From IMG/VR virus record IMGVR_UViG_2703718837_000009: 26,737 nucleotides of DNA; one strand, written 5' to 3'. This document shows, piece by piece, positions 8,141 through 25,206 of this stretch. Made by a program: the position numbers and the translations under genes. Position 1 is the stretch's first letter; each line of letters starts with the position of its first letter. A model generated the notes under the pieces. The model searched no databases. It was not told where the DNA came from and saw nothing but the letters and a program-made list of their open reading frames with translations. This DNA comes from a virus. Lineage: Duplodnaviria; Heunggongvirae; Uroviricota; Caudoviricetes.

Positions 8141-8683
8141 TCAAGCTATTTTTTGAGCAAATGATTCTCGCATGGGAATATATAGGGCATACTCAGCAAC
8201 AGCCAACCAATTAGCAATTCGCTTTTCGCATGTGCTAAAACACCACTCAGGATGTGCATCATTTAGCAATTCAGCCATTTTGCGCTTAGTCATCCCCCGT
8301 CCTTCATACCGTTGCCGGAGGACACTAATCAATCCAGGATGCTCTGCCAGCACCTCACTTATGACTCTATCAATACATAACGCCTCTGCATCAGTACAAT
8401 GCGCCAGCCAGGTCTTTTGCTTGCCATTGATCATCTCTCGCAAAAACGCTTCCAGCTCAGGTTTCTCTATTCCCGCTTTTTTCATCCTGCGCAGGGCTTC
8501 ATTGACGGCTGTTTTCGTCAATTTTTTGGATGCCAGCAACTGGTTAAACATATTTCCCGTCTTACCGCCGCCAATATACGACCAGCGCCCCCACATGCGC
8601 AGTTTTCCCTGAATCCAGACACTTTCCAGCGTGGTGAGACGAAGGTGTTCCCCGCTTTTGCCTGTATTTGTTGGGTAAATCAT
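8141..8683 (-). CDS. Putative late-gene antiterminator (Q-like)
   Basis: 180 aa from ATG at 8683 (SD GGAAGG); immediately downstream of nin-type DUF1364/DUF1367 genes and upstream of the lysis cassette; family assignment from memory. Confidence 0.6.
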   Translation of the reverse strand: MIYPTNTGKSGEHLRLTTLESVWIQGKLRMWGRWSYIGGGKTGNMFNQLLASKKLTKTAVNEALRRMKKAGIEKPELEAFLREMINGKQKTWLAHCTDAEALCIDRVISEVLAEHPGLISVLRQRYEGRGMTKRKMAELLNDAHPEWCFSTCEKRIANWLAVAEYALYIPMRESFAQKIA

Positions 8684-8970
8684 AAATAACCTTCCTTTCT
8701 CCAGATTTCTTGTGTGCGAAAAACACCTTCTGCATGCATCAGGCGTAATTCTTCTTTGGTGTAATCGCTGGTTTTTACCCGCCCGTCGATTAAATCGTGG
8801 CATGAGCTACAGGCAATCGCTGCCTGCATATCGTGTGGTTTTGTCGCTGTTCCGCACGTCCCCGCCAGCCTGTAATGCGCCAGCACAGAGGTTTCGGGAT
8901 TGTGATTGCAGTAGCCAGGGATTCTGATCTGGCACATCTGGCCTTTAGCCGCTTTACGTAAATTCACCAT
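8680..8970 (-). CDS. DUF1364-family phage protein (YbcO-like, Cys-rich)
   Basis: 96-aa ORF resembling DLP12 YbcO (RKAA.G..CQ.RIPG.CN.NPETSVLAH..L.G.CGT.TKP.D...AIACS.CHD); 4-nt overlap with Q start. Confidence 0.7.
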   Translation of the reverse strand: MVNLRKAAKGQMCQIRIPGYCNHNPETSVLAHYRLAGTCGTATKPHDMQAAIACSSCHDLIDGRVKTSDYTKEELRLMHAEGVFRTQEIWRKEGYL

Positions 8971-9569
8971 TACGCAAACTCCAGTAGTTGTGCGGCCACA
9001 TTTTCAACTTCCTCCTGAGAGGAGAATTTACGGAACAGAATCCAGTTCCACAGCACATTCAGAACAGATTTATAAACCTGCTGAAACTCGGTTTCGTCCA
9101 TATTCGCAAACGCGATGGATTTCGCCCTGCGCCCACGGCTACCGTCCGGATAAATATGCTCGGTGTAAAATCCGGCCTGAATGGTTACCCACTCGCGGAA
9201 AGCCTCAAACGACTTTAGCAATGCCGTATCCCGAGTTCTGCGTGTCGCAACTGTATTTAGATATTGCTCTGCGGCATCACTCAGGGCTGGTGTGTGTTCC
9301 CGACCAACTGATTCGCACAAGTAATCCACGAAACCAGACAGCAGTTCTCGTTCGCGAGGTGTGATCGCCCCACCGACCGGAGTCCAGTAATCGAATCCCA
9401 GTTGCAGGAGTTTGAAAAAACGCTTGTGGAATGCGTAGTTACGCACACGCTTAAAGTCTGCGTGTATCCACTCACCTATTTTGATTTGATGCAGAAAATC
9501 GCAACTCTCCGGCGTCGCCGGGAGAAGTAAACCAGAAGAGGTTTGTTTGACCAGTTGTATATGCGCCAT
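8970..9569 (-). CDS. DUF1367-like phage protein (nin region)
   Basis: 199-aa ORF; stop overlaps the DUF1364 start (TAATG); position and pattern fit the YbcN/DUF1367 group, not verified. Confidence 0.5.
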   Translation of the reverse strand: MAHIQLVKQTSSGLLLPATPESCDFLHQIKIGEWIHADFKRVRNYAFHKRFFKLLQLGFDYWTPVGGAITPRERELLSGFVDYLCESVGREHTPALSDAAEQYLNTVATRRTRDTALLKSFEAFREWVTIQAGFYTEHIYPDGSRGRRAKSIAFANMDETEFQQVYKSVLNVLWNWILFRKFSSQEEVENVAAQLLEFA

Positions 9570-9849
9570 TTCTCAATCTCTCGATGGCGCAGCGCAGCAG
9601 ATGCCAGTTGTTCAGGCTGACGAATAAAGTATAAATAAACTGGCTATGGTGTAAAGCCCCACATAGCATGAACAAACACTACATATCAAATAGCTGGTAC
9701 AAGGATAGAAATACGACATTTATTATTAAAAACGATTAGATAAATTACATTTTAATGTTATGCAGAAGTTCTTTTTTATCATAACATTTCAATAAAAGCA
9801 TTACAGATGCAATCATCCCGTCATCATCAATTATTTAAGGTGGTTAAAC

Positions 9850-9936
9850 ATGGAAAATAACAAGTTCGCACATCTCGCTCCTTTTTTATCCGTAATCCTT
9901 TTCGCTTGTTGTTTTATATGGGCATTATTTTTATAA
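9850..9936 (+). CDS. Candidate small hydrophobic protein (28 aa)
   Basis: ATG 7 nt after AAGGTGG; MENNKFAHLAPFLSVILFACCFIWALFL, one predicted TM helix; in the AT-rich intergenic region; not in the ORF track (below length cut-off). Confidence 0.3.
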   Translation: MENNKFAHLAPFLSVILFACCFIWALFL

Positions 9937-10327
9937 AGTAGCCACATGATAAGTTGCTGGAATCATATTTCCCACTCAAGTCATTAACATTTGATAAGAT
10001 ATATCTAAAAGGACACCTTTACATTATTTATGTGTATATAATTTATTTATATACACAGTAAAGGTATCCTGGGAAAATATTTATCGTTAAAAAATACATC
10101 ATAAATAATTAAGCTGAAATTTCAGAACACAACTAATACACACAATAAGGTTCAGTAACAATAATCTATGTGGACTACATCGAGATTTTTTGATTAAACT
10201 TTAATAACTTATTCCTAACACACAGAATGCATAAACTAAAAGTAAAACAAATAGTTATACGAAAAACAACCATATTTATTATATCTTCTCCTCTAATCAA
10301 CATATCAATTATGTGTTTCATAACAGC

Positions 10328-10375
10328 TTGACATAACCCTCAAAAACACGCATTTATAATGCATGTTTTTGAGGG
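10328..10375 (+). promoter_or_regulatory. Promoter with NsrR-type palindromic operator upstream of the yeaR-like gene
   Basis: TTGACA at 10328-10333, TATAAT at 10355-10360; 39-bp near-perfect inverted repeat 10337-10375 whose core AACACGCATTT-A-TAATGCATGTT resembles the NsrR 11-1-11 consensus. Confidence 0.5.
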
Positions 10376-10382
10376 GGTGGTT

Positions 10383-10721
10383 ATGACACACAAGAGAATT
10401 CCTAAAGATTGGGTAATCAAACGCTCAACTCCGTTCTTCACAAAAGAGAACGTACCTTCAGCGTTATTAACACATCATAATACAGCAGCAGGTGTTTTTG
10501 GGCAGTTGTGCGTAATGGAAGGCACTGTAACATATTATGGTTTTACTGATGAGAATGCTACTGAACCGGAGATAAAAGTAGTCATTAATGCTGGCGCTTT
10601 TGCAACAAGCCCACCACAATACTGGCACCGTGTTGAACTAAGCGATGATGCTCAGTTTAATATTAACTTTTGGGTCGCTCCAGACTTCTCGGGCGAAAAA
10701 GTCTATAGCACCAAAAAATAG
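10383..10721 (+). CDS. DUF1971 / YeaR-like protein
   Basis: 112 aa from ATG 10383 (SD GAGGGGG); matches the YeaR pattern RSTPF...VM.G.V.Y.G..DE...EP......AG.F...PP..WH...FNI.F.VAP. Confidence 0.75.
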   Translation: MTHKRIPKDWVIKRSTPFFTKENVPSALLTHHNTAAGVFGQLCVMEGTVTYYGFTDENATEPEIKVVINAGAFATSPPQYWHRVELSDDAQFNINFWVAPDFSGEKVYSTKK

Positions 10722-10750
10722 ATGATCATATTAAAAATGCTTTAACAGTC

Positions 10751-10788
10751 AGACCCGGCAGGGCTATCCCCGACGGGTCTCATTTTTG
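10751..10788 (+). terminator. Possible weak intrinsic terminator after the yeaR-like gene
   Basis: AGACCCG...CGGGTCT 7-bp stem with a long loop, followed by TCATTTTTG. Confidence 0.3.
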
Positions 10789-11483
10789 TAAATATATTGG
10801 TTCTACATTGACAGGAGACTTCAACCATAAGAAGTAATCTGAATACTTGAGCAATAAATTTACTTAAGATTAATGAGCGCACCTTGCCGGACAAAGATAA
10901 ACCAAGGTAACACCTTTTTTCTAGCCAGTATGTAATCAATCAGAAAGCCGCTCCATAAGAACAACAGCAAGACAATAAATTGCCATTACAGCCGCAATAG
11001 CCAGCGCACATTTGAGAATCAGCACGACAACCCCCTGTATTAGACGCACACCAGTCCTGATAAATATGAGGCTGTCTCGTCAGTGATTCAATACAACTAT
11101 TGGGTATAGTTTCTGTGATTTTATTCTGTAGAAATGGAACACAACAACCAGTCACCACCAGCACTTCTTTAAATACGCCAAGTCCGACGCAAGCTAACCT
11201 TCTAGTCCGCTTTGAGCGAAAAGCGGACAGGAACATTCTGGTTAATAGATATCAATGCTAACAAAAAAGCTCCCGATGGAGATTTTGAAACCGCTTCCAC
11301 ATAATGAAATAAAAGGATTTATTTCTGGTCATGCCCACACATTGACCACGTCGAAGTAAGTAGCTCCGCTTCGCGGAGTTACTTAAGATAATTTCTATGT
11401 AGTTCCATGCTATGATTTAATTTTCAAGTTACAAAATCTAAATCTACAAATGTCCATTTGGGTGTAAAATTACACAATCCTAT

Positions 11484-13809
<2,326 letters not shown>

Positions 13810-14110
13810 TTTAATTACCTTATATATCCAAACTCTTAATTTTCTCTTTTTTACCATAGGATTAATCCAAAATAAAGACCTTGTTGACTAAACCCTCATG
13901 TACAAAATGCACACTTACTCAAAAGGATCTGGAGGCAATCTCGACCTCCATGATTTAGTTCCTAGGGATAAGCAGAAATCTAGCACTGGATTAAAATTTA
14001 AAAATAATAATCAATAGGTTATAATGGTTTTTATTCGCATCCATGGGATCTGCTGCTGCCCGCATGATGTTGGATGCGACGGCGCTGGCACGACCTCACC
14101 CGGTGAAACG

Positions 14111-14557
14111 ATGAAACGCGAAAGGGTTGTTCTTCGGGAAGGTGCAGTTGGACTTTCAATCGATGACGTTGCAAAAGAGGCTGGCGTCAGTAAGGCAACG
14201 GTAATGTACGATCATAAGTCAAAGCAAGATTTGCTCAGCGATCTCATCAGTCGCCTTATGCCAGTAGAGGAGGAACGTGTTCAGCAAGCGATAGCGGAAA
14301 GTAATAATACCCCACATCCCGCACTCTATGGGCGAATTATTTCAGCCAGTAATGCTCTCAGTCATACTGAGAGAGCAGTAGTGCTGGCGGTCAGCGAATC
14401 GTTAACTAACGATACGAATATCAGGGACACCATGCGTTCCTGCACAAACAAAGATTTGGATGAGATAAAAAGAGGACCAAAACCAGACGTTGCCGTCCTG
14501 GTATATTTGGCGTTATCTGGTATCTACTGCCAAGAATTTTTTGATTTTTACAAATGA
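14111..14557 (+). CDS. TetR-family transcriptional regulator
   Basis: 148 aa from ATG 14111 (SD GGTGA); N-terminal HTH LSIDDVAKEAGVSKATVMYDHKSKQDLL; divergent from the three-gene operon. Confidence 0.7.
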   Translation: MKRERVVLREGAVGLSIDDVAKEAGVSKATVMYDHKSKQDLLSDLISRLMPVEEERVQQAIAESNNTPHPALYGRIISASNALSHTERAVVLAVSESLTNDTNIRDTMRSCTNKDLDEIKRGPKPDVAVLVYLALSGIYCQEFFDFYK

Positions 14558-24809: not shown

Positions 24810-25004
24810 ATGAGATATGACAATGTTAAACCATGTCCATTTTGTGGTTGTCCATCAGTAACGGTGAAAGCCATTTCAGGATATTACCGAGCGAAGTGTA
24901 ACGGATGCGAATCCCGAACCGGTTATGGTGGAAGTGAAAAAGAAGCACTCGAAAGATGGAATAAACGAACCACTGGAAATAATAATGGAGGTGTTCATGT
25001 ATAA
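24810..25004 (+). CDS. ralR: Restriction alleviation protein (Lar family)
   Basis: 64 aa from MRYDNVKPCPFCGC...; Cys-rich Lar-family pattern. Confidence 0.8.
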   Translation: MRYDNVKPCPFCGCPSVTVKAISGYYRAKCNGCESRTGYGGSEKEALERWNKRTTGNNNGGVHV

Positions 25005-25206
25005 AATTACCGCCACTATTGAAAAGGAAGGTGGCACTCCTACTAACTGGACAAGATATTCAAAATCTAAACTAACGAAATCAGAATGCGAAAAAATGCT
25101 CTCAGGTAAAAAAGAAGCAGGCGTTTCCAGAGAGCAGAAAGTAAAACTGATAAATTTTAATTGCGAGAAACTTCAGTCCTCGAGAATTGCATTGTATTCA
25201 AATTAA
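24997..25206 (+). CDS. ydaC: Small Rac protein YdaC
   Basis: 69 aa from MYKITATIEKEGG; its ATG overlaps the ralR stop. Confidence 0.65.
   Translation: MYKITATIEKEGGTPTNWTRYSKSKLTKSECEKMLSGKKEAGVSREQKVKLINFNCEKLQSSRIALYSN

Follow-up and report, generated by a model that had tools for sequence, protein, structure and literature searches.

Does a gene carried by a prophage answer to the nitric oxide (NO) sensor of its bacterial host? The question is raised by a locus in 26,737 nucleotides of Caudoviricetes DNA (IMG/VR record IMGVR_UViG_2703718837_000009), a stretch that we refer to, at its full length, as the window. There, a long palindrome at positions 10337–10375 precedes a small open reading frame (ORF) of 112 amino acids (aa), and a preliminary description, made from the letters alone, had interpreted the pair as a prophage-borne YeaR-like gene of the DUF1971 family behind an operator of the NO-sensing repressor NsrR. 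Our analysis supports the reading of a prophage DUF1971 gene with an NsrR-type operator. We consider it probable that the gene is a self-contained moron of a Rac-type lambdoid prophage, under predicted NsrR repression that would be relieved by NO.

Much of this builds on known ground: NsrR operators are familiar, the DUF1971 genes yeaR and STM1808 are known to be controlled by NsrR, and host regulators are known to govern prophage morons. What is new, and well supported by the sequence comparisons reported here, is a prophage-borne gene predicted to belong to the NsrR regulon, from a subfamily otherwise missing from the Escherichia coli chromosome and with an unusually polymorphic operator.

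The Palindrome and the DUF1971 Gene

The presence of a palindrome in front of an ORF was confirmed. Positions 10337–10375 read CCCTCAAAAACACGCATTTATAATGCATGTTTTTGAGGG and were resolved by a repeat finder into two 18-nt arms (10337–10354 and 10358–10375), which are 94% complementary and separated by 3 nt. The initial account of a 39-bp inverted repeat with a single mismatch holds only if these middle 3 nt are taken as a loop. When the whole is treated as a 39-bp palindrome with 10356 as its centre base, 17 of 19 positions pair, and only C10349/A10363 and the T/T flanking the centre do not. No second copy of the arm sequence occurs in the window (0.04 chance matches are expected at three mismatches or fewer), and a repeated phage operator was rejected on this ground. 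As had been proposed, the palindrome is located just upstream of the 112-aa ORF: its end lies 7 bp before the ATG at 10383, which opens behind GAGGGGGTGG.

The gene occupies 10383–10721 on the plus strand, including the stop codon, and ATG 10383 is also the RefSeq start of its product, WP_000149055.1. A longer program-made ORF, starting at ATG 10359 within the palindrome (120 aa), was rejected as an over-extension, since the N-termini of the orthologues, MSHxRIP, align with MTHKRIP at 10383. Many database entries (P0001, P0002, and P0004 among them; 120–121 aa, MHVFEGVV...) likewise begin at an in-frame ATG inside the operator, within TATAATGCATG; on the evidence of the sequence, this is almost certainly a mis-called start.

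A search against Pfam bears out the family assignment: PF09313 (DUF1971) is matched over profile positions 1–80 of 80 with E = 2.3e-26 and 92 bits, at a cut-off of 23.1. The label YeaR-like is correct as far as DUF1971 is concerned, but the protein is not of the YeaR type, as it is 41% identical to E. coli YeaR versus 79% to a 113-aa DUF1971 protein of Salmonella (P0014). Proteins of Kluyvera, Leclercia, Enterobacter, Klebsiella, Citrobacter, and many Vibrionaceae show 77–82% identity, and the nearest relatives by sequence are of the Kluyvera/Leclercia/Enterobacter type (80–82%), not of the Salmonella/Citrobacter type. Among solved structures, 3DL3 is closest (200 bits), followed by YeaR 3BB6 with 89 bits and TehB 3M70 with 46 bits.

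The Salmonella orthologue is located directly after nhaB and dsbB, a position which, from the LT2 gene order, we take to be that of STM1808. Judged by these similarities, the window protein belongs to the STM1808 subfamily of DUF1971, being closer to the STM1808 type than to YeaR or to the N-terminal domain of TehB. The histidines H31, H32, and H82 are invariant in the orthologue alignment and are present in the window protein; in STM1808, both the binding of zinc and resistance to NO reportedly depend on H32 and H82. STM1808 is listed in the NsrR regulon and has a reported role in virulence (PMC7527575, PMC7082413, both citing Karlinsey 2012). Since STM1808 is a named member of that regulon, the resemblance to STM1808 rather than to YeaR makes the link to NsrR stronger.

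Match of the Palindrome Core to NsrR Operators

Candidate sites were scored with a symmetrised matrix derived from 26 distinct 23-bp sites of E. coli CFT073, taken from Table 4 of a study by chromatin immunoprecipitation and sequencing (PMC5320621). The core of the palindrome, AACACGCATTTATAATGCATGTT (10345–10367), reaches 20.7 bits and is the best match in the 26.7-kb window. For comparison, hmp scores 20.3, yeaR 23.9, and ytfE 31.3 bits, and the training sites range from 12.0 to 31.3 bits with a median of about 20; by its matrix score, the core is placed at the level of accepted sites. Its exact per-position p is 1.7e-7 under the composition of the window and 2.2e-6 under 70% A+T, such that far fewer than 0.1 hits are expected in the window. 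The former value corresponds to ln P = −15.6, to be compared with the published cut-off of −14.28.

The predicted operator is an 11-1-11 inverted repeat, AACACGCATTT-A-TAATGCATGTT, proposed from its matrix score and its conservation. It departs from the published 11-1-11 motif, represented by the ytfE site AAGATGCATTTAAAATGCATCTT (Table 4 of PMC5320621), at one position per half-site, as the preliminary description had stated. The right half-site is near-consensus. A second-best matrix match, AAGATCCATTTTAATTACCTTAT at 13801–13823, reaches 17.3 bits and overlaps the start codon of an adenosine deaminase gene; situated in AT-rich DNA, it was treated as a probable chance hit.

Promoters of the Chromosomal Orthologues

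For comparison with chromosomal copies, 80 loci encoding orthologues were taken from one-genome-per-species collections. In the Enterobacterales, 51 of 52 chromosomal orthologues have their best site in the 250 bp upstream at 20.7–30.4 bits, ending 15–27 bp before the start codon. Orthologue sites mostly reach 24–30 bits, against a best score of about 2–14 bits elsewhere in the same 6-kb loci. The sole exception (L011) carries a 1-bp deletion in the NsrR site. Most Vibrionaceae orthologues are without an NsrR site directly upstream. We regard the conservation among orthologues as the strongest support for the predicted NsrR site. The proposal of an NsrR-type operator is supported by a statistically strong match and by a site conserved in front of chromosomal orthologues across the Enterobacterales.

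The promoters of the Kluyvera/Leclercia type align base for base with the prophage promoter over the −35 element, the operator, and the Shine-Dalgarno (SD) sequence. Their −35 hexamer TTTACA corresponds to TTGACA in the window, at an equal distance to the NsrR site, and their −10 hexamer TATTTT, 17 bp downstream and within the left half-site, corresponds to CATTTA; the right half-site and a GGAGG ribosome site follow at the same distances. This similarity fades upstream of about −60. The coding DNA is approximately 72% identical to the nearest chromosomal versions and thus too diverged to name a donor. From these alignments, the prophage appears to carry a core promoter, an operator, and a gene captured together from an enterobacterial chromosome.

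The orthologue promoters revealed three further features. First, a sequence resembling a Fur box, with 13–17 of 19 matches to GATAATGATAATCATTATC, is found at about −85 to −67 from the ATG, in a fixed position just upstream of the −35 element, in loci L005–L026 (Kluyvera, Leclercia, Enterobacter, Pseudescherichia, and Buttiauxella), the chromosomal orthologues closest to the prophage gene. This suggests dual control of the Kluyvera-type orthologues by Fur and NsrR. The Fur-box-like sequence is absent from loci of the Salmonella/Citrobacter/Klebsiella type and from the prophage copy, where the best match of 12/19 is at background level. Second, chromosomal NsrR sites at the DUF1971 gene can also be extended palindromes, with unrelated outer arms: 43 bp in Citrobacter (TGGCATTTATAAGATGTATATTAAATACATCTTATAAATGCCA) and 33 bp in Kluyvera (TTCATAAGATGTATTTTAAATGCATCTTATGAA), at loci including L027 and L009. 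This means either that the effective length of an NsrR site at this gene exceeds 23 bp, or that such palindromes tend to grow by templated mutation. Third, loci L068, L071, and L078 from Neptunomonas and Parendozoicomonas have no NsrR site directly upstream of the gene and reveal pairs of strong sites (18–24 bits) at a distance of 0.7–1.1 kb, which suggests that the DUF1971 gene resides in an NO-responsive neighbourhood there.

Variation among Prophage Alleles

The comparison of prophage copies covered 23 haplotypes (720 bp each) with 13 operator alleles, drawn from IMG/VR and from genomes of E. coli. On the NsrR matrix, all 13 score between 17.7 bits (the type of L084) and 28.6 bits (the type of L085). 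The operator core GCATT...AATGCAT is kept among them, apart from an A in place of the right-half G (10361) in three alleles and GCATTC in one. The −35 element and the stretch from the SD sequence to the ATG are conserved as well, though the region is otherwise hypervariable. The palindrome constitutes the most polymorphic part of the locus: 17 of its 39 columns segregate, compared with 38 of 245 in the upstream non-coding DNA (Fisher p = 2.6e-4) and 23 of 336 in the coding sequence. Most of this variation resides in the outer arms, and the long palindrome is present in only 7 of the 13 alleles, the other 6 being without outer pairing.

Consequently, the near-perfect 39-bp palindrome, which had been taken as the operator, cannot be retained as such: the conserved element is the 23-bp core only, and the outer arms are hypervariable. 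The alleles most similar to chromosomal promoters, with a GGAGGT ribosome site and AAGGTG or AAGATG in the left half-site, include some without outer pairing, and the 39-bp symmetry of the window therefore looks derived. The arms show a compensatory series with intermediates (CCTC/GAGG to CCTC/GATG to CATC/GATG), and further paired changes, A:T to C:G and C:G to G:C, distinguish the window from the allele of L085. The covariation is marginal. Three pairs show double changes, the covariation score was reached in 21 of 500 shuffles, and the pair count in 151 of 500. We read the 23-bp core as the selected element and the extended symmetry as a by-product either of palindrome-templated mutation or of weak selection, two causes that these alleles do not separate. 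Most likely, the outer symmetry arose through template-switch ('quasipalindrome') mutation or weak selection and does not represent a second functional element.

The length of the palindrome, which exceeds the 23-bp NsrR site, might instead point to another dimeric regulator, such as a phage repressor, a nearby protein of the TetR family, or a host Rrf2 protein such as IscR; a TetR-family gene is indeed encoded 3.7 kb away (14111–14557). We give this explanation very little credence. Phage repressors normally have several operators, whereas the arms are unique in the window; a similar palindrome occurs neither beside the TetR gene nor between racR and ydaS; and the outer arms, in which any extra specificity would be expected, are the least conserved part. 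Moreover, the core is conserved in front of chromosomal orthologues in genera without this phage.

Promoter Elements and Transcript Structure

A −35-like hexamer, TTGACA, can be read at 10328–10333 on the plus strand and is invariant in 23 of 23 prophage haplotypes. Two candidate −10 hexamers follow on the same strand inside the operator (10351–10360): CATTTA at 10351–10356, 17 bp from TTGACA, and TATAAT at 10355–10360, at a distance of 21 bp. The repeat had been described as centred on a perfect TATAAT. This hexamer is present and overlaps the centre base 10356, but is not itself centred there. Nor could its role as the −10 element be established, as it is too far from the invariant TTGACA for the two to cooperate, and the −10 of the orthologues, 17–18 bp from their −35 (TTTACA-17-TATTTT), matches the position of the weak CATTTA. 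A consensus promoter scan, which calls TTGACA/TATAAT pairs with a spacer of 16–18 bp, made no call at the DUF1971 promoter because of the 21-bp spacer. Both candidate −10 hexamers fall within the predicted NsrR site, and the −35 element is located 11 bp upstream of it. Transcription driven by CATTTA would be expected to start at about 10363, and that driven by TATAAT at about 10367. The SD region (10371–10378, plus strand) reads GAGGGGGT in the window and GAGGAGGT in most alleles, and positions 10376–10385 are invariant in all haplotypes. Downstream of the gene, an inverted repeat at 10744–10790 (plus strand) forms a terminator-like GC-rich hairpin followed by TCATTTTTG. Its RNA folds at −17.8 kcal/mol with z = −1.9, and it was not called by a strict terminator scan; it is no more than a probable terminator of the DUF1971 unit.

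A long palindrome may also act as a nucleic-acid hairpin, either by sequestering the ribosome site in plus-strand read-through RNA or as a pause, terminator, or processing structure in minus-strand early phage transcripts en route to Q. For RNA that spans the palindrome, the folding energy is −25 kcal/mol on the plus strand and −27 kcal/mol on the minus strand (z of about −6), the single mismatch turns into a G-U pair on the minus strand, and three arm positions are changed on both sides, with intermediates present. Yet any palindromic operator folds well in silico, outer pairing is missing in 6 of the 13 alleles, and covariation at the level given above is marginal. There is no U-run after the stem on either strand, and the terminator scan makes no call. 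If transcription starts past either candidate −10, the left arm is excluded from the mRNA, whose 5' end is then unstructured (−5.5 kcal/mol, z = +1.1), and the whole stem would be confined to read-through transcripts or to antisense transcripts of the phage. Rfam reports no RNA family at the DUF1971/palindrome locus. Finally, the core is conserved in sequence and not merely in pairing, which points to a protein site. We regard a role as a hairpin as quite improbable.

Is the Operator Still in Control?

Several points weigh against NsrR control of the prophage gene. With the local AT-rich background, ln P of the core is about −14.0, borderline at the published threshold. Position 5 of the left half-site is a C, a base found in none of the 26 published sites, and the operator of the window is among the weaker alleles, with 20.7 bits versus 26–29 for others. 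The strength of the core promoter is uncertain given its irregular geometry, in which CATTTA, spaced at 17 bp, is weak and TATAAT is spaced at 21 bp. Independently of NsrR, H-NS could also silence the upstream DNA, which is very AT-rich. Some promoters in CFT073 are bound by NsrR without being regulated by it (PMC5320621), and our literature search found no paper linking a prophage DUF1971 gene to NsrR or describing this locus.

An alternative explanation is that the NsrR-like site is an inherited relic no longer in control, the gene being constitutive, silent (for instance through H-NS), or expressed from phage transcripts only. The loss of consensus bases in the window allele, the irregular −10/−35 geometry, an operator that is the most variable part of the locus, upstream DNA of 25–32% GC, and the reported existence of bound but unregulated promoters would all agree with a relic. 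Against it, the core, the −35 element, and the SD sequence are kept in nearly all of the 13 alleles while adjacent bases vary freely, which indicates purifying selection on operator and promoter bases. In addition, one good half-site of 11 bp can be enough for NsrR to bind (PMC5320621, citing Partridge 2009), and the right half-site of the window is the near-consensus one. We judge the relic to be unlikely and prefer an operator that would still be under NsrR control.

Prophage Context and Distribution

The proposed prophage location was verified by gene content and by an annotated identical copy: the window represents a Rac prophage integrated at ttcA. The copy in MS15047, which is 100% identical, contains intR, xisR, ralR, recET, kilR, sieB, racR, ydaS/T/U/V, a Q-like DUF1133 protein, lysis genes, and trkG; coordinates in the MS15047 locus equal window coordinates plus 103. 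The initial 2.5 kb or so of the window are unlike the MS15047 prophage, which otherwise matches. The early-right operon of the phage runs on the minus strand, and the DUF1971 gene on the plus strand lies antisense to it in the nin region. It is flanked by an operon for SIR2, Ham1, and adenosine deaminase (11484–13809, minus strand) and by the DUF1367-YbcO-Q block (8141–9569, minus strand). Its GC content is 40–42%, compared with 25–32% in the upstream spacer and about 49% in neighbouring phage genes.

Of the complete E. coli genomes, 457 out of 5426 (8.4%) carry the gene, always with at least 95% nucleotide identity, and a diverged chromosomal copy is detectable in none of them. Carriers include strain LD27-1 as well as MS15047, whereas the Rac prophage of K-12 is not known to contain the gene. 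Homology to other prophage alleles stops directly past the stop codon (10721), where the DNA of other carriers encodes different cargo, i.e., QueH, two hypothetical proteins, or a DNA-binding protein. In the IMG/VR search, the E. coli Rac-like lineage of the window was the sole phage lineage with the STM1808-type DUF1971 subfamily. The remaining two matches lie at the ends of provirus predictions; the one inspected (L152) represents a chromosomal dsbB flank. By its position inside the prophage, its patchy occurrence in E. coli, and its atypical composition, the DUF1971 gene has the marks of a prophage moron.

Several neighbouring features were recorded alongside. The spacer at 9570–10330 comprises 760 bp of non-coding DNA with 25–32% GC between the DUF1971 promoter and DUF1367-YbcO-Q; given its AT-richness, it is a likely target of H-NS. 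Just ahead of DUF1367, the minus strand contains a promoter-like site, TTTACA-16-TATACT (9655–9628, 10 of 12 matches), suggesting that the Q-region genes could own a promoter.

On the other side of the gene, the minus-strand operon encodes an adenosine deaminase (12829–13809), a pyrophosphatase of the Ham1/ITPase family (12278–12832), and a stand-alone SIR2 protein (11484–12278), and the TetR-family regulator gene at 14111–14557 is divergent from it. In PADLOC, the SIR2 protein matches ThsA-like SIR2 models (108 bits) and the deaminase matches the CARF_ADA deaminase domain (123 bits); the Ham1 protein has no PADLOC match. Taken together, an ATP/adenosine deaminase, an ITPase, and an NADase would make up what looks like an anti-phage or nucleotide-depletion island not described before. 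In other Rac-like prophages, the slot of this island is filled by the different cargo named above. Finally, Rfam identified two expected Rac and insertion-sequence (IS) features, the IS009 RNA element at 723–921 and the RalA antitoxin small RNA of the RalR/RalA system at 25003–25181, both on the minus strand.

Proposed Regulation

The unit would consist of a sigma-70 promoter, the STM1808-type DUF1971 gene, and the probable terminator, placed antisense in the nin region. In an unstressed lysogen, the iron-sulfur repressor NsrR of the host would bind the 11-1-11 repeat at 10345–10367 as a dimer. This would amount to classical repression by promoter occlusion: the site takes in both candidate −10 hexamers as well as the likely start of transcription, and RNA polymerase recruited by TTGACA at 10328 is proposed to be unable to initiate. 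NO would nitrosylate the cluster of NsrR and the repressor would leave, whereupon an mRNA of about 0.4 kb would be transcribed, with translation from a ribosome site of the GGAGG type. The product is predicted to be a small cupin-like protein whose Salmonella orthologue belongs to the NsrR regulon and is reported to be relevant to virulence. An otherwise silent prophage would in this way deliver an NO-inducible protein, and because this subfamily is not represented on the E. coli chromosome, it is the prophage that would supply the STM1808-type protein. The comparisons establish the sequence features, the family, the prophage context, the statistical strength of the NsrR match, the conservation of the operator, and the collinearity of the promoters; actual NsrR binding, induction by NO, the −10 hexamer in use, and any benefit to the lysogen are inferred.

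A more speculative extension, which we hold to be rather unlikely, regards the operator as an evolving quasipalindrome. Template switching would rewrite both arms and thereby create the allelic series of 17.7–28.6 bits, with lysogens differing in their NO thresholds. As the unit lies antisense to the early-right operon, just ahead of the Q-region genes, convergent transcription triggered by NO, or the hairpin of −27 kcal/mol in the phage transcript, could then modulate the late genes of Rac and couple the prophage decision to nitrosative stress.

Comparison with Known Systems

The closest counterpart is Salmonella STM1808. Its protein is 79% identical and of similar length (113 aa versus 112 in the window), has H31, H32, and H82 in common with the window protein, and is likewise encoded by a single-gene unit whose start codon is preceded, at a distance of a few tens of bp, by an 11-1-11 NsrR site. 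In contrast to the window copy on an E. coli Rac prophage, STM1808 is chromosomal, at a fixed locus after dsbB and the dsbB terminator. The window operator is weaker and extended to a 39-bp palindrome, and its −35 hexamer is the consensus TTGACA.

In E. coli, the yeaR-yoaG operon is repressed by NsrR and activated by NarL. An induction of yeaR by a factor of 160 has been reported in CFT073 under nitrate/NO conditions. The two promoters share a layout, since the NsrR 11-1-11 site of yeaR, AAATGGTATTTAAAATGCAAATT, also bears a −10-like hexamer, TAAAAT, in its AT-rich centre, and both genes encode DUF1971 proteins. They differ in that the proteins are 41% identical, the window is without a yoaG partner, and the NsrR site ends 15 bp before the ATG versus about 60 bp in yeaR. 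A NarL 7-2-7 site as at yeaR was looked for by eye and rejected, as one heptamer with 6 of 7 matches, TAACCCT (10334–10340), has no partner.

The closest solved structure, 3DL3 from Vibrio fischeri, covers residues 1–111 with 200 bits and belongs to the same subfamily. It is a structural-genomics entry without functional data, and its name, 'tellurite resistance protein B', is inherited from TehB.

Prophage morons under host regulators are exemplified by lambda bor/lom and Gifsy-2 sodCI. The gene in the window resembles them in its atypical GC content and its absence from related prophages; it would also be an independent unit with a predicted promoter and a probable terminator of its own, presumably expressed from the repressed prophage. 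The window gene differs in its predicted controller, the host NO sensor NsrR, and in that a whole cassette of promoter, operator, and gene has seemingly been captured from a chromosome.

Implications

The arrangement proposed here is a familiar one and not a new mechanism; it leaves the understanding of how NsrR or morons work unchanged. If NsrR does control the gene, a prophage has extended the NO-stress regulon in approximately 8% of sequenced E. coli strains by a member that the species otherwise lacks, namely the orthologue of a gene that has been linked in Salmonella to virulence and to resistance against nitrosative stress. It would also show plainly how a phage can take over a promoter, an operator, and a gene from a host as a single cassette, its cargo thereby being wired directly to a conserved sensor of the host. 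The comparison of carrier and non-carrier lysogens would then offer a simple handle on the function of the DUF1971 protein, and the allelic series of operators provides a natural experiment on operator strength.

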